64,000 nucleotides of DNA from Escherichia coli (GTDB lineage: Bacteria > Pseudomonadota > Gammaproteobacteria > Enterobacterales > Enterobacteriaceae), in the NCBI RefSeq assembly GCF_003991155.1, contig NZ_CP031294.1; one strand, 5' to 3'. Shown one piece after another: positions 39,893 to 61,900 of this stretch. Each line of letters opens with the position of its first letter. The stretch's first letter is position 1. The translations under genes and the position numbers were made by a program. The notes under the pieces are model-generated. The model had not been told where the DNA came from and did no database searches. It was given only the letters and a program-made list of their open reading frames with translations.

Positions 39893-39897
39893 AATCG

Positions 39898-39925
39898 AGC
39901 GCCCACTATGGGCGCTTTTTTCGTT
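39898..39925 (+). terminator. intrinsic terminator (gagcgcccac-tat-gggcgct + T-run); same hairpin also at 39401-39422
   Basis: Stem-loop and T6 run read directly. Confidence 0.7.
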
Positions 39926-39942
39926 TCCAATACTTCCACAAT

Positions 39943-39970
39943 AACGCGCCATTGATGGCGCGTTTTTTAT
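39943..39970 (+). terminator. second tandem intrinsic terminator (aacgcgccat-tga-tggcgcgtt + T-run)
   Basis: Stem-loop and T6 run read directly. Confidence 0.65.
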
Positions 39971-40383
39971 TGTCTTTAACTCACTCCAACAACATAAAAA
40001 TAAGCGCCAAAATAACGCCATAAACGCGCTTTTATATCCTTACCAGTACATACCCATTACTTAACACATTAACGCGCTTAAAACGCGTTATATTGCGCTA
40101 TAGCGTATGGTTAATCATTGGCTTTTAGTCTTGCTATGTGATCCGCGTTTATTTGTCGGCGCGGATCGGCATTTTGTTTTGTTCCGTATCCGCTCGCGTA
40201 TTATGTGCGCGTGATTTTTCACATAATCACACCACTTAATCACGTATGTGATTATGCTACGAAAGAAATCTGGATGTCTCAGGCGACGAAAGTCATCATA
40301 ATTTTCCCCGCTCGCCTGTCCGACAACCGCTGGTTGGATTCCACCAGCTTCCCGATGTTTTTTTCTACATAAAGGCGAATGCA

Positions 40384-40460
40384 GCCGTTTCCCGAAAAAA
40401 TCCTGGCCGTTTCCCGTCGGCTCATGAATACGTTCCTCGCCGTTTCTGAAAATTTCCCTG
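40384..40460. repeat. three iteron-like repeats GCCGTTTC(C/T)(C/G)
   Basis: gccgtttcccgaaaaaa / gccgtttcccgtcgg / gccgtttctgaaaatttccctg read directly. Confidence 0.5.
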
Positions 40461-40509
40461 CGGCAGCTGGTGGCTATAGAGAAAGGGCCGTTTCTGGCCC
40501 TCTTCTCAG

Positions 40510-40992
40510 TTACACGCCATCAAGGATGTGGATGCGGTTGCTTGCGTATACATTCAGCATAAAGTTAGCGCAAAACAGTTTCCATGTATCAACGCCAGCG
40601 GTATACGTAATGTTTTTGCATTTAATCGCATTGTTGGCGATCCGCATCCCCTGCGATACTGCTTCATCGTCGGAAAATTTGAACGACGATTGAGTTTTAA
40701 TCCAGACAGAAATCTGCGTAGCGAACTCAATCAGCTTGGACTGGCAGAATCGCCCGGAGCGCACCGGAAAGACGAACGTTCCGAATCCAGAATTTACCAC
40801 ATATGCTTTCTCAAATACCCGCGAGTAACGACGATTGCCAATGATGTCGCGTGCAATAATGCATTTTTCTTGTGCTGACAGTTCTACCGTCTCATTGTCG
40901 CGCCATGCACCAAGTACTCGTTTTTCAATGTCAGAGAACGTTACAGCGATATTGCCATGTGCGGGTGCGTTTACAGTAGCGATAAAATTCAT
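40510..40992 (-). CDS. hypothetical protein
   Basis: 160 aa; conserved family-2 box immediately upstream of start. Confidence 0.55.
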   Translation of the reverse strand: MNFIATVNAPAHGNIAVTFSDIEKRVLGAWRDNETVELSAQEKCIIARDIIGNRRYSRVFEKAYVVNSGFGTFVFPVRSGRFCQSKLIEFATQISVWIKTQSSFKFSDDEAVSQGMRIANNAIKCKNITYTAGVDTWKLFCANFMLNVYASNRIHILDGV

Positions 40993-41009
40993 GATTAATT
41001 CCTTATCGT

Positions 41010-41045
41010 AAATAACAAATTGTTTTCTTGTTGGTGTTAATTATC
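41010..41045 (-). promoter_or_regulatory. family-2 promoter/operator-like box (AACA-N3-TGTT core + TCTTGTTGG extension)
   Basis: aaataacaaattgttttcttgttggtgttaattatc read directly; about 20 bp upstream of ATG 40992. Confidence 0.6.
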
Positions 41046-41167
41046 GTTGTACGAATAAGGCGTCAAAGTGGAAAGTTGCGGTAGCCGGACGGGAACAGGT
41101 GGGTTTGTCGGTTGCCTGGAGGTAAGAGGTTGGTGTTTTTAGCCTGCGGGAAACAGGATGGTCATTT

Positions 41168-41191
41168 AAGGCCACCAGCATTGGTGGCCTT
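41168..41191. terminator. GC-rich hairpin (aaggccaccagcattggtggcctt); near-identical hairpin at 41651-41674
   Basis: Inverted repeat read directly; the two copies share flanks gtcatttaag / ccttaat. Confidence 0.45.
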
Positions 41192-41196
41192 AATCT

Positions 41197-41478
41197 TTAG
41201 TGGAGCAGACCGATGTCGATGGTATCCCCTGAATCATCCACACGGATCATCAGCATGGCAAAGGCGTTTAGTGGATAGCTTGCGTGCCATTCAGGGAAGC
41301 GGTCATCTCGCATGAAGTCGGCAATGTCGTAAACGCATCCCTCAAAGTGGAAGAATCGCGTGCTTACCTGCTCGTCATAATCCACATGATCCATTTCTTG
41401 CTGTTCTGTTTCCGGCAAGTCCAGCCATGATTCAAGAAATACATTTTGTGCTTTAGGGGTAATGGTGAAATCAGTCAT
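41197..41478 (-). CDS. small acidic hypothetical protein
   Basis: Start set at ATG 41478 with GAGGA SD; family-2 box upstream. Confidence 0.5.
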   Translation of the reverse strand: MTDFTITPKAQNVFLESWLDLPETEQQEMDHVDYDEQVSTRFFHFEGCVYDIADFMRDDRFPEWHASYPLNAFAMLMIRVDDSGDTIDIGLLH

Positions 41479-41495
41479 GAGCATATCCTCACTGC

Positions 41496-41529
41496 GTAAA
41501 CATGTTGTTTTCTTGTTGGTGTAATTATC
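41496..41529 (-). promoter_or_regulatory. family-2 promoter/operator-like box
   Basis: gtaaacatgttgttttcttgttggtgtaattatc. Confidence 0.6.
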
Positions 41530-41813
41530 GCAGTGTAGATAAGGCATAAAAGAAGTTAATACAGGCTGAATACACAAGAAAGGTTCTGGAAGTTGATAGC
41601 CAGGTTTCAAACTAACCTTCGGTTATTAAAAGTCATTTAAGACCACCAATGCTGGTGGCCTTAATAATTATCGCCCGATTACGCTAAGGATCTTTTCCTC
41701 AACTGATTTGTTGTTGCGACTAAACTGCCTTGCGTATCTGATGACAGAAGAGGCGTTTTGCTTTCTGACCATCTCGGCTCTTTCCTTCAGGCGTTTCTTG
41801 AAATCGCCCATAT

Positions 41814-42188
41814 TTACCACCAGGCGCAGAAGGTCAGTCTGTTATTGTGAAAGTCGTGGTTCTTAATCAGATCTTCCACAAGCTCTTTCAACTCCCCCAC
41901 ATCATGCCAGTAACCTTCATCGTACTCCTGACTGCCGAAGAAAAAACCTTCCCGGGTAGGCAAGTACTCTTCGCAATTACTTTCGTTTATGTGCATCAAA
42001 TGAGCCTTCAGAAAACAAATGTCATTCATCGTTAATTCTAAAAGCTCACAATTTTCGACTTCACCTACGTTGCGCTCCATCCACCCAACGAGCGCATTGA
42101 ACTTACGGAAGTAAGCAACCTGCTTTCTGGATGCCTCGTTATTCAGATCGTTTTTAGGCTGTGTCTCGATATAGATATCAAGTCCCAT
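41814..42188 (-). CDS. hypothetical protein
   Basis: Start set at ATG 42188 (MGLDIYIE) with AAGGAAA SD. Confidence 0.45.
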   Translation of the reverse strand: MGLDIYIETQPKNDLNNEASRKQVAYFRKFNALVGWMERNVGEVENCELLELTMNDICFLKAHLMHINESNCEEYLPTREGFFFGSQEYDEGYWHDVGELKELVEDLIKNHDFHNNRLTFCAWW

Positions 42189-42242
42189 GATGGTTTCCTT
42201 ATTAAGTTGCTTCAGTGAAATCATTTTCACAAATCAGATAAG

Positions 42243-42266
42243 GCAGAAAACAAATTGTTATCGGGC
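42243..42266. promoter_or_regulatory. family-2 palindrome core (agaaaacaaattgtt), inverted orientation relative to the other copies
   Basis: Read directly. Confidence 0.5.
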
Positions 42267-42305
42267 ATAAGAAAATGGCGCGGTTTACGCGCCATTCAAA
42301 GAGGA

Positions 42306-42701
42306 TTAAGCGAATACGCTTTCAGGGATTAAGGTGTCAGCAGGAATGCCGGAGGTAATGCGCAGGCCGTACTGACCAATCCAGGTAGTGTTGGTATTCA
42401 GGCTGGAGGCGAATACGGTGTTAACCATATTCATCATGGTTTCAAACACCTCTTCATCAACCTGGCGGAAGTAGTTCTCGATTTTCAGCAGCAGCGGGTC
42501 AGTTGCATCGAAAATAGACTGGTATTGAGTCGCGTACTCGCCGCCGGAGGCATCACCTTTACGCACGATCGTACTGGCCTGGACTTCGGCACCAGTTTCG
42601 GTGTTGTACGTAACAACGGTGATTTTTGCCACATTCTTACCTTCGGCGGTTTCAGAGGCATAGTAAACATCAACTGTCAGTTTTTCGCGTTTAACGGTCA
42701 T
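42306..42701 (-). CDS. hypothetical protein
   Basis: Start set at ATG 42701 (MTVKREK) with GGAGAG SD; family-1 palindrome and terminator upstream. Confidence 0.5.
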   Translation of the reverse strand: MTVKREKLTVDVYYASETAEGKNVAKITVVTYNTETGAEVQASTIVRKGDASGGEYATQYQSIFDATDPLLLKIENYFRQVDEEVFETMMNMVNTVFASSLNTNTTWIGQYGLRITSGIPADTLIPESVFA

Positions 42702-42764
42702 TTCACTCTCCGTAGTGTTTTGGTTATTTTTATATTCTATGATCGTAAGTATGTACTTACAATA

Positions 42765-42792
42765 CAAAAAAGCCCCGTAAGGATGGCGGGGC
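42765..42792 (-). terminator. intrinsic terminator (agccccg-taaggatggc-ggggct with T-run on minus strand)
   Basis: Read directly; downstream of gene 42828..43139. Confidence 0.65.
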
Positions 42793-42827
42793 TGTCGTAC
42801 TGTCGACTAATTACCACTTGCACATTA

Positions 42828-43139
42828 TCAGGCTATTGCCATCACTGATGCTCTCTGAATCTCTTGCTGGGCCACGCGGTTAACTTCCATCAAAGCCAGT
42901 TCGAGCTGATGTTCCGGCCACATTCTTTGAAATGCCACCCAGCCTTTTCCACGCTGGCGACGAACATTCATTACATAACGAGTAAAGGTGTATTTATCGA
43001 AAGACACCGCTGTTTCACGGAACAGACGAATAGAGGTTCCATTGGCAACGATGTCCAGCAAAGTTAATTGAGCAACCAGCGCAGGCTTCTCTTTTCTCTT
43101 CTGGTCTTTGTCCAGACCAAGAACCAATGATTTTTTCAT
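42828..43139 (-). CDS. hypothetical protein
   Basis: Start set at ATG 43139 (MKKSLVLG); family-2 box upstream. Confidence 0.5.
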   Translation of the reverse strand: MKKSLVLGLDKDQKRKEKPALVAQLTLLDIVANGTSIRLFRETAVSFDKYTFTRYVMNVRRQRGKGWVAFQRMWPEHQLELALMEVNRVAQQEIQRASVMAIA

Positions 43140-43147
43140 CACAACTC

Positions 43148-43186
43148 CGTAAACAACTTGTTTTCTCAATGGCGTAAATAATACCA
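43148..43186 (-). promoter_or_regulatory. family-2 promoter/operator-like box
   Basis: ccgtaaacaacttgttttctcaatggcgtaaataatacc. Confidence 0.6.
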
Positions 43187-43292
43187 GTAAGAAAACGGCT
43201 ACAAAGCATATTGATCAGGTGCATGAGCGATATGCAGGTTCTTCCCTGCGGCTATAGAGAAATTAAGCCAGCATTGCTGGCTTTGGTTAGGT

Positions 43293-43622
43293 TTACTCGA
43301 ATACTTCAAGAAACTCCTGAACGTCCCAATGCTGGACAAGGTGAAGATAGACCTTAGAAATAACATCATTCTCGCTATCGCATGTGAAGTAGTACTTCTG
43401 GCTGCGGTTGTATGTGTCCACACAAAATTCGCTCATATCCATAAAGTCAGCATCTTCACCCATGTCGCAAATCATCAAAGCAGGTGCGTCATCACGAGTC
43501 ATCAGCTCAAGCACCCACCGCGAATTGATCAGAGTGGAAGACCAACCTTCTAACTCATAAAACTGATCAAACTCTTTTTGAGTTAATTTCTTGATTTGGT
43601 TGATGTCGATATTTGCAAACAT
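43293..43622 (-). CDS. small acidic hypothetical protein
   Basis: Start set at ATG 43622 (MFANIDIN) with AAGGA SD; family-2 box upstream. Confidence 0.5.
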   Translation of the reverse strand: MFANIDINQIKKLTQKEFDQFYELEGWSSTLINSRWVLELMTRDDAPALMICDMGEDADFMDMSEFCVDTYNRSQKYYFTCDSENDVISKVYLHLVQHWDVQEFLEVFE

Positions 43623-43630
43623 AAAGCAAT

Positions 43631-43666
43631 CCTTAAACAACATGTTTTCTTGATGGTGTTATTATC
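43631..43666 (-). promoter_or_regulatory. family-2 promoter/operator-like box
   Basis: ccttaaacaacatgttttcttgatggtgttattatc. Confidence 0.6.
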
Positions 43667-43792
43667 GCAATAACGCACAGGTGAAAAAGGATTTTATTCC
43701 GGTGAATGTGGTTTTGGCAGTGAGTTTTCAGGTTCAGTACCGAGTACACTTTTTACATTATTCTGATTTAGTGGCCGAAGGTGGCTGGTGGG

Positions 43793-44125
43793 CAGAATAA
43801 TCCTCTCCCCGAAAACCTACTGAAATCGATTGTGACCCGTTGGCTGTCTGGCACAATTACGCTGTAACTGGGCATTCAGAGGGAATCCAGCGGTAAGTAA
43901 GTTCGCCTGCACGTGAGCGCCTCTCTTCTTCCCGCACATTACAGGTGGGTAGCCGCAACTCTCCCTCTCGCTATACCGGTACGCCGCCGTTCCTGAACCG
44001 GCATCGAGCCTTCTCCCGAAATCCACACAGGCAACTCGACCGTTTCCCTGAAAACCTCCAGCCGTTCCCCGAAGGCAACCCAGCCGTTTCTGTAGCGGGA
44101 TGCAACCTTTTCCCTGTATGGACCG
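43793..44125. repeat. array of about 7 iteron-like repeats (C(C/T)GTTTCCC(T)GAA-type)
   Basis: ctccccgaaaacc, cttctcccgaaatcc, ccgtttccctgaaaacc, gccgttccccgaagg, gccgtttctgtagc, ccttttccctgtatgg, gccgttcctgaacc read directly. Confidence 0.5.
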
Positions 44126-44229
44126 AAGGCTGACCGTAGGGGTGTTACGGGGGATAAAATCAGGAGTTGAATAAATACGAAAAAGGAGGCGACACCCCTC
44201 CTTCTCTCCCCACTTATACATACCTGGCT

Positions 44230-44830
44230 TCTTCGCTATACATGTTGTGTTTTATTCGTGTTTTATCTGTCTCAACCTCTCTATGGACGTTAATACTCAC
44301 TCCTTCCAGAACGTTCTATACGGCGACTAATTCTGTTGGTGAATTGGGTGTGTTGTTCTCTCTGTCGGTGTATGTGGTTTCGTTCGTTTTGCGGTGGTTC
44401 TTCTATGGGGTGTTCTCGTCGTTTTGGTGATTGTTCTTCTCCGTGTATGGAGTAATGGCAGGTGGGCGATTCCTTTCGTTATTGTGTTTGAGTTGTTTGT
44501 CTGGAGTGCGTGAAGGGCTTTTGTAGTTATTCGTGTGTTGGGTAATGGCGTTTCCCGTGATTGTTCTGTTTCGTGTCTTTTGGGATTGAGAGAAACCTTG
44601 CGGTTACAGGCTTCGTTGGGGTTTCAGTGATTCTGGTGTTTCTTCGCTGTTTGGGTAATGGCGTGTCGTGGGTATCGCGCGTATGGAAGTTTCGAATTGC
44701 CTGTGAAAGTTAGGTTGGTTGTCCGGTAGCCTGAGAAGAAGAGGTGGGTCTTTTCGGTAGCCTGCCATAAAGAGGTTGGTTGTTTTTGGTAATGGCATAT
44801 GTGTTATTTAGTTGTTTTGTTATGCCTGAA
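44230..44830. repeat. strongly strand-skewed (G+T-rich on plus strand) non-coding tract with degenerate ~60-bp repeats (ggtaatggc..., cggtagcctg...)
   Basis: Base composition and repeated words read directly; ORFs in the tract are low-complexity and rejected. Confidence 0.5.
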
Positions 44831-45036
44831 AATAAGTTGTTTATATGGTTATGTAACGCAACGGGAACGATTTTGAGCGTGTGTTTTTGTTGGTAGTGTG
44901 TTGGGTCGTCTGTGGTGAAAATTGGACGCTGTGGCGCTGTCTGCTGCGTAGAATTACGGGTATAAGCAGTGATGTGTGAAAACGTCAATTTTTTAGACCA
45001 AATCGGGTGAAAGCGTTGATGTTTCGTTGATCTGTT

Positions 45037-45074
45037 ATTCAGTTGTTTTCTTATTGGTATAAACAACTGTAACC
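45037..45074. promoter_or_regulatory. family-2-related box with split arms (cagttgttt-N12-aaacaactg)
   Basis: Read directly. Confidence 0.45.
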
Positions 45075-45176
45075 TATTGATATTTAAGGATGTGATTCCA
45101 GGCATGGAAGGGGAGTAGTGGCGATCAACGGATTCTTATAGAAAAGAATCAAATTGTGACCGCCATTATCAATGTT

Positions 45177-45911
45177 TTACTTAGTTTTGTTTAGCAGAGA
45201 GAGAATTTCATCACTAATTTCACTCGCCTGTTTGATAGCCAATGCAGTTACCTCTTCTATGGTTGGTGACTGTTGATGCTCATATTTGGTTTCGGTTATG
45301 ACAATGTGTTCTTCACCAGAATTTGCGCATAGTGCCGCATTGACGATAAGGTTTGAGTAAGAATTTAGCAGAGCACTGTTGATGAACGCTTTCACGGTAT
45401 TACTGTCTGCACCAAATACATCTTTTCTGACCGCTTCAGCCTCACAGCGAACCCCTGCAGCAACATCGTGAAGAACATGTATGGCCTTGGAGCTTGTTTG
45501 TTCACAGTACTCAATCATTATTGTCGAATTGTTCTGTTCAACAAACGATCTGATGCCTGACGATTTACCCATAGCATCGAAGGCAGCGTGACCCGCACTA
45601 GTAGAGATATCTTCATAGAGTTCTTCATCGCTATCTTTTTCTTCAGGTGTCGAGGTGTCTTCATCGTCGTAATAGATATTGCCTTTAATCAGTGTCTTGG
45701 ACACTTGATATAAACAATAAGAAACGAGATTTAAGCATTGGATTTTAGCTGTATTGTCCTTTGTCGCCTCGCTATTCAGTTCTTTCGCTTCTTCAGTAAG
45801 GCTGTTGATAAGACTTTGTATTTTTTCCAACGCGTTAGGTGCACACTCCGCGTTGTCCATAAAGAATTTATAACCAGTCCCAGGGATTTCTAAACTTTTC
45901 AACTTTTTCAT
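45177..45911 (-). CDS. hypothetical protein
   Basis: 244 aa ORF. Confidence 0.5.
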   Translation of the reverse strand: MKKLKSLEIPGTGYKFFMDNAECAPNALEKIQSLINSLTEEAKELNSEATKDNTAKIQCLNLVSYCLYQVSKTLIKGNIYYDDEDTSTPEEKDSDEELYEDISTSAGHAAFDAMGKSSGIRSFVEQNNSTIMIEYCEQTSSKAIHVLHDVAAGVRCEAEAVRKDVFGADSNTVKAFINSALLNSYSNLIVNAALCANSGEEHIVITETKYEHQQSPTIEEVTALAIKQASEISDEILSLLNKTK

Positions 45912-45956
45912 TTCTTTGATAATCCTAAAAACAAACTACCAATGCTTTAATATCTG

Positions 45957-46256
45957 TTACCAGTTCCAGCACTCAAGCCCTTCAACGACCGGCGCACCAC
46001 AATCAAAATGTACAGAGTCAAAGCCTACATCAAGTACTTTCTGAATGTTAGCAATCGCGCCTTCGGATATACCATATCGACGCAAGTCCTCTTTCCAGAC
46101 ATCATCCTGTAACCCAGCGTGGACAATACAACCGCCGTCAATTTGTGAAACCCAATCCAGCTCATTGCTTGCGATCATGAATCGGCGAGCATCTTCCTCT
46201 GATGTATGAGATGAGCTGATCAATGCCACCTGGTAGGCTTGGGTAATGTTCAACAT
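45957..46256 (-). CDS. hypothetical protein
   Basis: 99 aa; two family-2 boxes upstream. Confidence 0.5.
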   Translation of the reverse strand: MLNITQAYQVALISSSHTSEEDARRFMIASNELDWVSQIDGGCIVHAGLQDDVWKEDLRRYGISEGAIANIQKVLDVGFDSVHFDCGAPVVEGLECWNW

Positions 46257-46266
46257 TTCAACAACT

Positions 46267-46340
46267 CCGAAACAATTTGTTTTCTTATGTGGCTTATTAT
46301 CTCAATCAACAAAAGGTAGAAAACAAATTGTTTTAGGGTT
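46267..46340. promoter_or_regulatory. two facing family-2 boxes (46267-46301 and 46315-46340)
   Basis: ccgaaacaatttgttttcttatgtggcttattatc and ggtagaaaacaaattgttttagggtt. Confidence 0.55.
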
Positions 46341-46417
46341 TGTTAAAGTCAGAAGGGGTTGTGTCTATATGAAAATGCCCAGCGTGTTGCCGGGCATTGC
46401 GAACAGAGGTTGTTTAA

Positions 46418-48451
46418 TTACTTAACCTGGTGGCCTGGTTTAGCACCAGCATCCGGGCTTAACAGGAAGATATCTTTCCCGCCGGGGCCAGCAGCCATCA
46501 CCATGCCTTCGGAGATACCGAAGCGCATTTTACGCGGAGCCAGGTTAGCCACCATAATGGTGTGACGACCAATCAGTGCCTGTGGGTCTGGATAAGCAGA
46601 ACGGATGCCTGAGAAGACATTACGCTTTTCACCACCGAGATCCAGTGTCAGACGCAGCAGTTTGTCAGAACCTTCGACAAACTCCGCGTTTTCAATCAGC
46701 GCCACACGCAGGTCAACTTTGGCGAAGTCGTCAAAGGTGATGGTTTCCTGAATCGGGTCGTCAGCCAGTGGGCCAGTTACCGGTGCAGCTGTGGCTTTCA
46801 CTTCTTCTTTGGATGCTTCCACCAGTGCTTCCACCTGTTTCATATCGATACGGTTATACAATGCCTTGAACGGATTCACTTTATGGCCCAGCAGCGGTTG
46901 CTGGATACCATCCCAGGTCAGTTCTGTATTCAGGAATGCTTCTGCACGTTCAGTCAGTTTCGGCAGTACCGGTTTCAAGTACGTCATCAGCACGCGGAAC
47001 AGGTTAATGCCCATAGAGCAAATCGCCTGCAGATCGGCATCGCGTCCTTCCTGCTTCGCCACCACCCACGGAGCCTGTTCATCGACATATCGGTTAGCCA
47101 GGTCAGCCAATGCCATGATTTCACGGATAGCTTTACCAAATTCGCGGCTTTCCCATGCTTCGCCAATCACTTCAGCGGCATCAGTAAAGGTTTTGTACAG
47201 TTGCGGGTCAGCCAGTTCGCTTGCCAGCACGCCGTCAAAACGCTTGTTGATAAAGCCTGCATTACGGGAGGCCAGGTTAACCACTTTGTTCACGATATCG
47301 GCATTCACGCGCTGAACGAAATCCTCCAGGTTGAGATCGATATCATCAATGCGCGAAGAGAGTTTCGCAGTGTAGTAGTAACGCAGGCTGTCGGCGTCAA
47401 AATGATTCAGCCAGGTGCTGGCTTTAATAAAGGTGCCGCGAGACTTGGACATCTTCGCGCCGTTCACCGTCACATAGCCGTGAACAAACAGGTTGGTCGG
47501 CTTGCGGAAGTTGCTGCCTTCCAGCATGGCAGGCCAGAACAGGCTGTGGAAGTAAACAATATCTTTACCGATGAAGTGGTACAGCTCGGCTGTGGAGTCT
47601 TTCTTCCAGTATTCATCGAAGCTGGTGGTATCGCCGCGCTTGTCGCACAGATTCTTGAAGGAACCCATGTAGCCAATCGGCGCGTCCAGCCAGACGTAGA
47701 AATATTTGCCCGGCGCGTTCGGAATTTCAAAACCGAAGTAAGGCGCATCGCGGGAGATATCCCACTGTTGCAGGCCGGATTCAAACCACTCCTGCATTTT
47801 GTTCGCCACCTGCTCCTGCAACGCACCGCTGCGGGTCCATGCCTGCAACATTTCGCTGAAAGAGGGCAGATCAAAGAAGAAGTGTTCGGAATCACGCATT
47901 ACCGGGGTAGCGCCAGAAACCACCGATTTCGGCTCGATCAATTCAGTCGGGCTATATGTTGCGCCGCAGACTTCACAGTTATCGCCGTATTGATCTGGCG
48001 CTTTACATTTCGGGCAGGTGCCTTTCACAAAACGATCCGGCAGGAACATGCCTTTTTCCGGGTCGTACAACTGAGAGATAGTGCGGTTTTTAATAAAACC
48101 GTTCTCTTTCAGGCGAGTATAGATAAGCTCAGACAGCTGGCGGTTCTCTTCGCTGTGCGTCGAGTGATAGTTGTCATAGCTGATGTTAAAGCCTGCGAAA
48201 TCAGTCTGGTGTTCCTGACTCATTTCGCCAATCATCTGCTCCGGTGTGATACCAAGCTGCTGTGCTTTCAGCATGATCGGCGTACCGTGGGCATCGTCGG
48301 CACAGATGAAATTAACCTCGTGGCCGCGCATTCGCTGGTAACGAACCCAGACATCAGCCTGGATGTGCTCCAGCATATGGCCGAGGTGGATTGAGCCGTT
48401 AGCGTACGGCAGCGCGCACGTCACCAGAATTTTCTTCGCGACTTGGGTCAT
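46418..48451 (-). CDS. metG: methionine--tRNA ligase
   Basis: Near-full-length match by recall to enterobacterial MetG: HIGH-type motif [16 protein letters not shown], zinc knuckle CPKC...C..C, C-terminal tRNA-binding domain; start set at MTQVAKK (ATG 48451), the ORF-track start is an upstream artefact. Confidence 0.95.
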
Positions 48452-48608: not shown

Positions 48609-49709
48609 ATGAGCGAGTCCAAATCGCCGGATGCCCTGAGAGCAATGGTAGCCGGTACGCTGGCTAATTTTCAGCACCCAACCCTGAAACACAACCTGAC
48701 TACGCTTAAAGCGTTACACCATGTTGCGTTGATGGATGACACACTGCATGTCGAACTAATCATGCCTTTCGTGTGGAATAAGCCTTTTGAAGACCTGAAA
48801 GAGCAATGTAGTGGTGATCTGCTCCGTATCACTGGCGCAAAGGCTATTGACTGGAAGCTGTCGTACAACATTGCCACGCTTAAGCGCGTCAAAAACCAAC
48901 CAGGCATTAATGGCGTTAAGAACATTATCGCCGTCAGCTCAGGCAAGGGCGGCGTGGGTAAATCCTCCACGGCGGTAAACCTGGCACTGGCGTTGGCTGC
49001 TGAAGGTGCGAAAGTTGGTATTTTGGATGCCGATATCTATGGTCCATCAATTCCAACCATGCTGGGCGCGGAAAACCAACGTCCAACCTCACCTGACGGT
49101 ACTCACATGGCACCTATCATGTCTCATGGCCTGGCAACCAACTCTATTGGTTATCTGGTCACCGACGACAATGCAATGGTGTGGCGTGGACCGATGGCCA
49201 GCAAGGCGCTGATGCAGATGTTGCAGGAAACTCTATGGCCTGATCTGGACTATCTCGTTCTCGATATGCCGCCGGGCACTGGTGATATTCAGTTGACGCT
49301 GGCGCAGAACATTCCTGTAACTGGTGCGGTTGTGGTAACTACGCCGCAAGACATCGCGCTGATCGATGCGAAGAAAGGCATTGTGATGTTCGAAAAAGTC
49401 GAAGTGCCGGTACTGGGTATCGTCGAAAACATGAGTGTGCATATTTGCAGTAACTGCGGTCATCACGAGCCAATTTTTGGCACCGGTGGCGCACAGAAAC
49501 TGGCCGAGAAATACAACACGCAGTTGTTAGGCCAAATGCCACTTCATATCTCTCTTCGTGAAGATCTGGATAACGGAACACCAACCGTTATTAGTCGTCC
49601 AGATAGCGAATTTACGGCTATTTATCGTGACCTCGCAGATCGCGTTGCCGCCCAAATGTATTGGCAAGGTGAAGTAATACCTGGCGAAATCGCATTCCGC
49701 GCAGTGTGA
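48609..49709 (+). CDS. mrp: Fe-S cluster carrier ATPase Mrp/ApbC
   Basis: Walker A SGKGGVGKS, CxxC motif (CSNCGHH), conserved divergent arrangement with metG as in enterobacterial chromosomes. Confidence 0.93.
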   Translation: MSESKSPDALRAMVAGTLANFQHPTLKHNLTTLKALHHVALMDDTLHVELIMPFVWNKPFEDLKEQCSGDLLRITGAKAIDWKLSYNIATLKRVKNQPGINGVKNIIAVSSGKGGVGKSSTAVNLALALAAEGAKVGILDADIYGPSIPTMLGAENQRPTSPDGTHMAPIMSHGLATNSIGYLVTDDNAMVWRGPMASKALMQMLQETLWPDLDYLVLDMPPGTGDIQLTLAQNIPVTGAVVVTTPQDIALIDAKKGIVMFEKVEVPVLGIVENMSVHICSNCGHHEPIFGTGGAQKLAEKYNTQLLGQMPLHISLREDLDNGTPTVISRPDSEFTAIYRDLADRVAAQMYWQGEVIPGEIAFRAV

Positions 49710-60578: not shown

Positions 60579-60723
60579 GTGGACTCCATCCAGTGTCAGA
60601 AAGAGTTGCGGCTGGCGATTGCCAGCCGCCTTTCTCGTTCCATCCTGGAACTGTGTCTTACCGACACATTGTCATCCTGACGCTGATAAGATACATGATT
60701 TAAAATGATAGGTAAACACTTAC

Positions 60724-61317
60724 TTACCACTTGTTATAAACAAAACCAATATCTTTCTTGTGAGGCATATCTGCTGCTGAAAAAGCTGCGATCTTCGCGA
60801 GTCGATCACATATTTCATTTTCACGATGCCCGGCGTGACCTTTAACCCACTTCCAGCGAACATTATGTCGACTTGCGGCCTCATCCAGACGTTTCCACAG
60901 ATCAACATTCTTTACCGGTTTTTTATCAGAAGTCATCCATCCATTACGTTTCCACCATTTCATCCACTGTGTCATGCCGTTTTTCAGATACTGGCTATCA
61001 GAGTACAAAATAACGTTGCATGGATATTTCAAACGCTCCAGCCCGATAAGTGCGCCCATCATCTCCATGCGGTTATTGGTGGTGCTATGAAAACCATCTG
61101 AGAACTCGCGTTCCTCACCACGATACTGGAGAACGATACCGTAACCGCCCGGGCCACCCGGATTTTTAAGGCAAGAGCCATCACTAAAGATTTTCACGGT
61201 TTTGAGCTGGGGATTGAACTCTACGACAGGCGTTGTGGGATTGGTGCGGGGAGAATTTTTGTTTTTGGCTTTTTTGCGAGTTTTTGCTTGCGATCGGGCT
61301 GGTGTCTTCGTCGTCAT
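60724..61317 (-). CDS. RNase HI-like ribonuclease with basic N-terminal extension
   Basis: Start set at ATG 61317 (MTTKTPAR) with AGGAG SD; four acidic residues align with the RNase HI catalytic D/E/D/D positions by recalled alignment to E. coli RnhA. Confidence 0.75.
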
Positions 61318-61900
61318 ATAAACTCCTGAATCAAGCGCCGCGCCGATTTTTTCCTCGCGCGTGCGCACACGCGTGCGTGTTAATAATTATTAAAATAAAC
61401 AAATTACTTCCCAGAACAGGTTTTTTATAAACCTGAACTGAACGAACGAAGTGAGTGAAGTTCACCTCGAACGAAGTGAGAGGTTGTCTTTTCAGGTAAT
61501 ACTCTCCCAGGGAGGTGAGTATAAAATTCCTCACCAACCTGGTCGTTTCATAACCTGAAAAGCTATGGTCTAAGTCTACTGCCAGCTTAGACTTGGGAAG
61601 TTATGGATGACAGCACCCCAGAACCGAGATCTTCCCACACTTTATGAAGGGGAGTACTGGATTCAACCTCTCGAAACACCCCAGACTCGACAATCATAAA
61701 GTGACCCTTGTCTCTGCTCACTTTGGTTCCCCCTTCCCCGACACCTAAACGGCACCGGTTCTACGCTGGTAGTGAGCTTTTTTAAACCTGACGCCAGTGA
61801 CGCTTACCCCCACCCATCAGGTCGAGTCTCCAGTCTACGACTGGAAACTATCAGATCTTAGCACTTACAATTCACTTTATGAATAGTTTGTACTTATCTA

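Follow-up and report, generated by a model that had tools for sequence, protein, structure and literature searches.

Background

In enterobacteria, Rho terminates transcription on RNA that is untranslated, unstructured and richer in C than in G over at least ~80 nt, and it does not require this RNA to be pyrimidine-rich. The Rho-dependent terminators and Rho-utilisation (rut) leaders that have been described, such as lambda tR1 and the leaders of rho and pgaA, consist of untranslated, C-rich, G-poor and unstructured RNA on the strand of the neighbouring genes, and lie between transcription units with a pause or hairpin at their end. All of these features are predicted to recur in a conserved non-coding block at positions 43650-45176 of a 64,000-nucleotide stretch of Escherichia coli DNA (contig NZ_CP031294.1 of assembly GCF_003991155.1; hereafter the window), which contains a long tract with an extreme strand bias in base composition. 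The tract differs from the described rut leaders in being approximately ten times longer, A-rich rather than pyrimidine-rich, strongly conserved in sequence and furnished with repeated motifs. The block is tentatively interpreted here, with a probability of roughly one in three, as an untranslated, Rho-prone polar barrier or attenuator that would stand between cargo genes and a block of iterons and early genes, in a region carrying the putative global operator of the phage.

The individual parts of the block (iterons, a Rho-type leader and operators) are of known kinds. It is an unusual variant in its scale, in the extreme segregation of keto and amino bases between the strands, in its motif content and in its fixed place at a cargo hotspot. 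Clinical E. coli, Klebsiella, Enterobacter and Salmonella commonly harbour phage-plasmids of the SSU5/pHCM2 type, whose cargo includes resistance and defence genes. The block is the largest conserved non-coding region of the SSU5-type elements, is unannotated and marks the exact edge of the hotspot at which cargo is exchanged. A barrier that works independently of the cargo would explain how accessory genes can be swapped freely without disturbing lytic control, and could also be used as a portable insulator.

Identity and conservation of the block

Over 43600-45200 the window matches Escherichia phage Cyrano at 97% identity and further E. coli phage-plasmids at 92-96%, and Salmonella phage SSU5 is a relative of lower identity (67% over 43950-45176). 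The annotations of Cyrano, PhiR41_1 and SSU5 describe a 108-kb SSU5-type phage-plasmid in which nearly all genes are co-directional, on what is the minus strand of the window, and by these matches the window is assigned to an SSU5-like phage-plasmid. Small conserved minus-strand genes (40510-43643) flank the junction on one side, while accessory genes begin at 45177 on the other, encoding here a 244-aa protein, a 99-aa protein and a methionyl-tRNA synthetase.

A distant BLAST search of PLSDB found homologues of the block in 833 plasmids, mostly at 65-75% identity, from Klebsiella, Escherichia, Enterobacter, Salmonella, Citrobacter and Cronobacter. It is carried by 242 of 5426 complete E. coli genomes (4.5%), plasmid-borne in every case, and the only phages that have it are SSU5-like. 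RefSeq and plasmid records usually bear no annotation beneath it from the Prokaryotic Genome Annotation Pipeline (PGAP), no description of the region was found in the literature on the SSU5/pHCM2 origin, iterons or RNA sequencing, and the covariance models of Rfam 15 give no match at E <= 1 inside 43650-45170.

A search with the invariant sequence of the right end recovered 66 viral contigs, which were reduced to 37 lineages at 97% identity and aligned; the counts of lineages and relatives given below refer to this set. The conserved blocks of the alignment are an early-gene promoter/operator module, a block at the left end, the iteron cores, block 4 and the anchor (coordinates in Table 1), together with a set at 44810-45060. 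Within the skewed tract, too, many positions are conserved, including all motif copies. The column variability of the tract (0.16-0.25) is not above that of neighbouring coding DNA, and the identity of the block between clades is about that of the orthologous gene 40510-40992. The limits that a preliminary description of this DNA, made from its letters alone, had set for a gene-free tract were essentially right, and this conservation supports its view of the region as a large cis element without genes.

Composition and coding capacity of the skewed tract

The base content of the tract on the plus strand, measured over 44230-45060, is A 0.16, C 0.14, G 0.30 and T 0.40; G+T thus amounts to 0.70, and to 0.72 over 44300-44800. 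The best 500-bp segment has a G+T content of 0.738, compared with 0.496 +/- 0.028 (maximum 0.598) in the remainder of the window. No second G+T-rich run of this kind occurs in the 64 kb, and an equivalent of 700-900 bp is found in every homologous locus. GC skew, a check that the preliminary description had suggested, runs at +0.3 to +0.5 across 44300-45100, and AT skew at -0.3 to -0.6. The skew reported earlier is therefore real and unique, although the strand is not 'almost only G and T', and the tract extends over ~830 bp rather than ~600 bp.

Read as minus-strand RNA, the tract contains 30-32% C and 14-15% G over ~800 nt, and the excess of C over G is +20 to +26 per 100 nt over 44420-44880, compared with a window mean of -2.5 +/- 7.6. 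At block 4 the GC skew changes sign, the iteron segment at 43961-44100 being C-rich on the plus strand (C minus G of +23 to +25 per 100 nt). As the tract is C-rich on the minus strand, transcripts from either side would have more C than G before block 4.

Deamination of the plus strand was considered as a source of the skew, and the variant spectrum gives this no support. In a rough analysis of low-frequency within-clade variants on the plus strand, in which recombination between clades may pass for mutation, G>A changes outnumber every other class and C>T changes occur at a similar rate per site. This implies that the G excess is eroded by mutation rather than made by plus-strand deamination, and that it looks selected.

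Two families of direct repeats are embedded in the tract. The motif GTAATGGC has at least two copies in all 37 relatives (mean 2.95); TTCTTC-N9-10-GG precedes three of the four copies in the window, where exact GGTAATGGC is confined to the tract. Both copies of the C repeat are present in 31-33 of the 37 lineages. A tandem-repeat analysis, likewise suggested at the outset, reports no array (Tandem Repeats Finder, 43650-45170, score of at least 30). The degenerate repeats first described are real; they are not ~60-bp units, but short motifs spaced 90-134 bp or 31 bp apart.

Each GTAATGGC contains a conserved ATG, and the tract could in principle encode small hydrophobic peptides or a low-complexity protein on the plus strand, with each motif copy supplying a start ('MA...'). 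G/T-rich codons yield hydrophobic peptides, open reading frames (ORFs) of 73-117 aa are found in some Klebsiella versions, and ORFs have been annotated here by some depositors. However, as a result of frameshifts and stops, the ORFs that begin at the ATG of the same GTAATGGC vary in length between lineages, from 4 to 110 codons, an inconsistency for which small 'MA...' peptides were rejected; GGAG/GGGT stands only 2 nt ahead of the ATG, and most records have no PGAP call in the tract. The 37-lineage alignment shows no period-3 conservation signal, the length of the tract varies among lineages by non-multiples of three, and the longest ORFs shift in both frame and length. A coding role is scarcely credible on these comparisons, and the tract, in which no credible ORF had been seen at first reading either, is classed as non-coding with no conserved ORF.

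RNA structure and the favoured strand

The minus-strand RNA of the tract has a mean minimum free energy of -10.5 kcal/mol per 120 nt, compared with -28.1 +/- 7.0 for the window, and the five weakest-folding minus-strand segments of the entire 64 kb fall within it. RNAalifold detects no conserved RNA structure on either strand beyond one hairpin per end (structure conservation index <= 0.3). The description of the element as structured consequently fails except at its two ends. By contrast, the proposal that its minus-strand transcript would have the composition of a Rho-loading site stands, such an RNA being C-rich, G-poor, untranslated and nearly structure-free.

The hairpin of block 4 folds more strongly as minus-strand than as plus-strand RNA in 22 of 23 distinct sequences (-12.1 versus -7.1 kcal/mol), and is terminator-like in the window and in Klebsiella, though it scores poorly as a terminator in the SSU5 clade. 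The same strand preference is found for the anchor hairpin (45168->45118) in 11 of 12 distinct sequences (-16.1 versus -11.0 kcal/mol). In diverged lineages both are kept partly by G-U pairs that exist only on the minus strand. Together with the strand of the neighbouring genes, these hairpins favour the minus strand as the one that is transcribed and selected.

Position at the junction with cargo genes

In the 129 loci that carry the anchor, homology breaks off no more than a few bases from 45176, and beyond this point lie 43-44 unrelated flanks, which implies that the block is the fixed edge of a cargo hotspot. Of 43 flank types, 30 have their first cargo gene on the minus strand, reading into the block, and in most of these its stop codon is ~10-40 nt from the anchor. 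Read in this direction, the tract follows gene 45177-45911 and precedes conserved early genes, rather than lying upstream of an accessory gene as originally described.

The cargo adjoining the junction in the window includes a full-length methionyl-tRNA synthetase (46418-48451, minus strand) and a MinD/Mrp-like ATPase (48609-49709, plus strand). At the same site other lineages carry DUF262 plus a type I restriction-modification (R-M) system, a GIY-YIG nuclease or insertion sequence elements.

In rare variants (L152:4900-6100 and L103:1-1343) the tract is cut ~130-250 nt past its low-coordinate end and the rest is replaced, while the iterons and block 4 are kept; the replacement in L152 is an ordinary small gene with a standard promoter/operator module. 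This implies that the tract is separable from the iterons and not strictly essential. The clade of SSU5, Enterobacter and Salmonella has an extra 243-bp plus-strand ORF between the left promoter module and the iterons (SSU5_110; L003:8121-8363, with equivalents in L010 and L011), which is absent from the E. coli and Klebsiella clades.

A candidate barrier to transcription from the cargo

As the tract RNA is untranslated, C-rich, G-poor and unable to fold, Rho should load on it; C lies well above G over at least the ~80 nt typical of rut sites. Minus-strand transcripts leaving the cargo genes, and possibly also transcripts from a local operator-linked promoter, would enter the tract, where Rho would load on the RNA and stop transcription, and the hairpin of block 4 with its U-rich tail would close the tract as a back-up stop. 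The tract may thereby act as a one-way barrier whatever cargo is swapped in. Its purpose would be to keep read-through from two sets of elements, namely the 22-bp iteron array (with a putative DNA-binding protein, and a counterpart 3.5 kb away that likewise follows a terminator) and the early genes under operator control.

Several observations weigh against a barrier of this kind. The first cargo gene is on the plus strand, pointing away from the tract, in 13 of the 43 flank types, and no sigma-70 promoter is confidently assignable, as the candidates, which lie on both strands, all have an imperfect -10. The tract RNA is A-rich (40%), not pyrimidine-rich, and at 800 nt it exceeds the needs of a rut site ~10-fold. 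Efficient intrinsic termination at the closing hairpin would make so long a tract unnecessary for a barrier; among members of the SSU5 clade this hairpin is without a good U tract, and its stem is kept only through G-U pairs. Furthermore, the sequence is conserved like adjacent coding DNA (65-75% across genera), which a barrier dependent only on composition does not explain. The direct orientation that GTAATGGC and the C repeats keep in all lineages is also left unexplained.

Table 1. Positions of the sequence features of the block and of related elements in the window.
Feature	Position	Strand	Description
Strand-skewed tract	44230-45060	minus	C/A-rich, G-poor minus-strand RNA; non-coding; almost without secondary structure
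GTAATGGC motifs	44452, 44542, 44655, 44789 (44452-44796)	plus	four direct copies, spaced 90-134 bp
C repeats (C2)	44724-44780 (starts 44724, 44755)	plus	two 31-bp copies of CGGTAGCCTG-N6-AGAGGTKGGT; conserved
Block 4	44144-44222	minus	GTTACGGGGGAT..TTGAAT..GCGA..CCCTCC..CTTATAC; low-coordinate end of tract; hairpin 44206->44176 and T-rich tail
Anchor	45120-45176	minus	imperfect inverted repeat GGCGATCAAC ... GTGACCGCC around inner hairpin, then TTGATA/TTGACA
Iteron array A2	43987-44125	plus	CCKTTYCC starts 43987, 44040, 44062, 44084, 44106; last four exactly 22 bp apart
Iteron array A1	40385-40496	plus	four copies at 40385, 40407, 40440, 40488; conserved family-wide
C-repeat cluster C1	41076-41168	plus	three ~30-bp units upstream of promoter of gene 40510-40992
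Early-gene promoter/operator module (gene 43293-43643)	43635-43695	minus	palindrome AAACAACATGTTT (43635-43647) and extended -10 TGCGATAAT; conserved in 37 relatives
Conserved left block	43784-43860	plus	Chi octamer 43784-43791, degenerate iteron CCTCTCCCCGAAAACC, promoter-like site 43830-43857
Palindrome copy AAATAAGTTGTTT	44830-44842		no gene behind
Early-gene 5'-leader motif copy	45043-45060	minus	TTGTTTTCTTATTGGTAT on plus strand; half-operator; no gene behind
Minus-strand promoter-like site	44994->44959	minus	A-tract, TTGACG (44988->44983), 18-nt spacer, TATACC (44964->44959)

A recurring module and the possibility of a multivalent RNA

The conservation of the tract and its repeated motifs, which a barrier does not explain, make a multivalent RNA acting in trans a serious rival, albeit one less than probable in itself. 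The tract would then be the body of a long (~0.55-1 kb) minus-strand non-coding RNA (ncRNA) gene, with a structure-free C/A backbone that displays four copies of GCCAUUAC and two of ACCCACCUCUU...CAGGCUACCG. These motifs would capture, in trans, multiple copies of a protein or RNA, the transcript serving as sponge or scaffold, for instance for Rho, Hfq, ribosomal protein S1 or a phage protein binding RNA or single-stranded DNA, and the hairpins at the ends would protect the RNA. Such a role is in keeping with the number and orientation of the motifs, conserved in 37 of 37 lineages, with sequence conservation equal to that of coding DNA, and with end hairpins that are specific to the minus strand. 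In addition, the operator copy just upstream suggests control by a repressor.

A further argument comes from the arrangement of the tract. The C repeats within it resemble 41076-41140 in nhmmer searches (E 4e-5 to 1e-5), and on the minus strand 41180->40370 and 44830->43930 are colinear. The first of these modules consists of C repeats (C1), a promoter, gene 40510-40992, a terminator and iterons (A1), and the second of C repeats, the tract, a hairpin and iterons. Shared elements stand at near-equal offsets (query 42-104 and target 46-109; query 730-800 and target 736-795), the two modules being colinear within ~6 nt. The tract therefore stands where the other module has its gene body, within a frame that recurs, which implies that it is organised like a gene. 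It was also considered as a decayed paralogue of gene 40510-40992, with which tblastn finds no similarity, and as an array of decayed promoter modules, for which only the C repeats show similarity; both candidates were rejected.

The case for an RNA gene is weakened by the lack of a convincing promoter after the C repeats, and Rho should shorten an untranslated C-rich RNA of this length. There is no Rfam match, and no target complementarity stands out; a candidate antisense role for GCCAUUAC was rejected, as GTAATGGC was found at only one gene start in Cyrano. Natural variants without most of the tract, although rare, also count against it, and to our knowledge no such phage RNA sponge has been described. 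It is doubtful, if attractive, that the tract represents a new kind of phage gene, that is, a structure-free, C/A-rich decoy ncRNA of ~0.5-1 kb in the frame of a protein gene, which would target Rho, Hfq, S1 or another factor and set early-gene or cargo expression or the plasmid-versus-lytic decision. Were this true, the decoy RNA would constitute a new class of regulatory RNA.

Iteron arrays and replication origins

The pattern CC[GT]TT[TC]C[CT] has 15 matches on the plus strand of the window and one on the minus strand. On the repeat statistics that the preliminary description had offered as its own test, this total is no better than chance (15.3 +/- 3.6), whereas the clustering is far above it: nine matches, all on the plus strand, fall in the arrays A1 and A2, and the larger cluster, with five matches within 150 bp, compares with a maximum of two in 300 Markov simulations. 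When degenerate copies at 43802-43817 (CCTCTCCCCGAAAACC) and 44009-44020 are counted, the approximately seven copies originally reported near 43793-44125 are confirmed, as is the second cluster, at 40385-40488.

As repeats, the iterons are genuine and phased. The array is kept with 3-6 copies in 34 of 37 diverged relatives, most of which have 4-6, and 95 of 133 iteron spacings across the relatives are exactly 22 bp; the cores are conserved and the spacers variable. Exact spacing combined with varying spacers predicts a protein bound on one face of double-stranded DNA. Both A1 and A2 lie directly behind minus-strand stop signals, and the terminator hairpin of gene 40510-40992 holds the last A1 copy (40488) in its loop.

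A conserved core, a variable spacer, 22-bp (two-turn) phasing and a second cluster a few kb away are shared with the iterons of P1 oriR/incA, F RepFIB and lambda ori. Unlike at these theta origins, the repeat is unrelated to the iterons of the element's own RepA, and no DnaA box, AT-rich element, GATC cluster or recognised initiator gene adjoins it. In Cyrano, repA (60633-61688) is ~33 kb away, outside the window. Iterons of the CTATAGTGGAT type, DnaA boxes and GATC clusters surround it, and the CCGTTTCCC motif does not occur there. A RepA plasmid origin was rejected for this difference in motif and distance. No TTATCCACA-like DnaA box is found within one mismatch in 43650-45180, and 40-bp segments with at least 75% A+T occur only at 44783-44857 and 45027-45098, at least 650 bp from the iterons. 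The replication origin first proposed for this region is hence not supported in the usual sense of the term.

It is unlikely, but not far-fetched, that the block contains a second, lytic origin or a cis site of the P4 ori/crr type. A phage initiator would bind both iteron clusters, 3.5 kb apart, and the tract would expose one strand through an R-loop formed by a plus-strand transcript or through loading of helicase and primase. P4, also a phage-plasmid, reportedly has a bipartite ori/crr with two clusters of the same short iteron several kb apart; the two clusters described here are both conserved family-wide. The block differs in having no AT-rich stretch and no known binding of an alpha-type primase-helicase. 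The strictly phased iterons are origin-like. The phage encodes a helicase, a primase, the alpha subunit of DNA polymerase III, RNase H and T4-like UvsW, UvsX, UvsY and gp32, but has no mapped lytic origin, and the sequence next to its helicase and primase genes yielded no repeats resembling an origin. The lack of a mapped lytic origin and the phased, duplicated iterons keep a P4-like origin under consideration, which, if real, would be the missing lytic origin.

The transcription that an R-loop would need has a candidate source in the plus-strand promoter-like site of the left block, which points into the iterons and the tract. This site (TTGTGA-N16-CACAAT, with TG at the extended -10) passes the threshold of a position weight matrix (PWM) at the same position in 28 of 37 relatives, and R-loops are favoured by the GC skew, which is +0.4 to +0.5 on the strand that would be non-template. 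Yet the G content of the tract (30-32%) is below what R-loop predictors require; the plus strand lacks the C>T excess expected of a chronically single-stranded strand; and the end hairpins favour minus-strand RNA. Neither iteron cluster adjoins a DnaA box or AT-rich unwinding element, and variants missing most of the tract exist. Nor is there an initiator candidate among the flanking small proteins, which have no Pfam or NCBIfam match and include a 160-aa neighbour with no match to a DNA-binding fold. The proteins encoded next to the helicase were rejected as initiators, having no initiator domain and no internal iterons; those upstream are DUF2971 or match nothing.

Alternatively, the iteron arrays, perhaps with the tract motifs, might form a loading or partition/silencing platform on double-stranded DNA, possibly for orphan ParB-like proteins ~9 kb away, with the tract merely insulating it. 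The phased direct repeats do stand in two clusters, both behind terminators in poorly transcribed pockets, and the genes for ParB and ParB-like nuclease-domain proteins in Cyrano have no ParA gene next to them. However, the likely centromere is located elsewhere, where a ParA gene is accompanied by one for a small partner protein (Cyrano 29.3-30.3 kb), nothing ties the ParB-like proteins to the iteron motif, and the tract motifs are left without explanation, so that a platform of this kind appears quite improbable.

Operators, promoters and other motifs

The window contains 13 copies of a 13-bp palindrome, AAACAA-N-TTGTTT (2313, 31871, 31896, 41013, 41498, 42248, 43151, 43635, 44830, 46270, 46321, 59088 and 59817), and Cyrano 18, against 1.1 expected. 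Nearly every copy precedes a start codon by 25-50 nt (terS, parA, helicase, nrdB and early genes), and the palindrome looks like the operator of a putative global phage regulator. The repeat family to which the early-gene promoter/operator module belongs has copies at 41020, 41505, 43158, 43642, 45043 and 59095. The scattered operators of the P1 C1 repressor are the closest parallel, the same operator-like palindrome here standing before many operons, with one copy inside the block. By contrast with P1, the site is palindromic rather than asymmetric, and the copy in the block has no gene following it. The -10 of the minus-strand promoter-like site is imperfect, with C in place of T at -7; its columns are strongly conserved, and the PWM threshold is passed in 19 of 37 relatives.

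The C repeats invite comparison with ops, the 12-nt element of RfaH with consensus GGCGGTAGCGTG, in which C3:G8, G5, T6 and T11/G12 are reported as the recognition and pause bases, with the pause at U11 (PMC5995543). The sequence CGGTAGCCTG reproduces ops positions C3-G12 except G10, thereby keeping C3:G8, G5, T6 and T11/G12, a striking likeness at the contact bases, and does so in two conserved copies (31-33 of 37 lineages). The plus strand might accordingly provide a functional G/U-rich leader from ~43868, in which these two elements, on the non-template strand, would recruit host RfaH and allow transcription to continue into plus-strand cargo such as defence operons; the plus-strand promoter-like site lies upstream in 28 of 37 lineages, and Klebsiella types have a plus-strand operon of DUF262 and type I R-M genes after the anchor. 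This is nevertheless very unlikely. G1 and G2 of ops are missing from CGGTAGCCTG, and the ops-like pattern is no more frequent than chance allows (3 in the window against 1.13 expected, with 12% of shuffles reaching 3). The strand is opposite to that of most neighbours, including the downstream genes in the window (45177-48451), where no co-directional operon comes next, and those in 30 of 43 cargo types. The C repeats at 41076-41168 face minus-strand genes, the phage encodes no RfaH or NusG paralogue, and the end hairpins favour the minus strand.

The neighbouring small proteins match only PHROG families of unknown function, with no NCBIfam match above the curated cutoff for ten proteins and no Pfam match for two. 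The structure model of the 160-aa neighbour is confident and has no structural neighbour, and thus gives no clue to the protein that binds the repeats. Likenesses noted by eye to lambda boxB (CCCTGAAAA), the CsrA site (AUACAGGGA), the F nic site (TGGGGTGT), loxP arms, the type I-E CRISPR repeat and DnaA boxes were rejected as due to chance or not conserved.

The Chi octamer GCTGGTGG occurs 15 times in the window against 1.4 expected, for example at 40341(-), 40466(+), 41172(-), 41651(+) and 43784(+), mostly on the minus strand below ~32 kb and mostly on the plus strand above ~36 kb. Two copies are inside the stems of near-identical terminator hairpins at 41166-41193 and 41637-41664 (TTAAGGCCACCAGCATTGGTGGCCTTAA). 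Beyond array A1, a convergent intergenic pocket at 39893-40380 contains two strong plus-strand terminators (39897-39925 and 39944-39969), which account for sub-threshold Rfam matches to small RNAs there. The pocket also has repeated ATAA(R)CGC motifs and a palindrome, TAACGCG-N7-CGCGTTA (40070-40090), and terminator-like hairpins at 40139-40178 and 40195-40220 that could close small RNAs.

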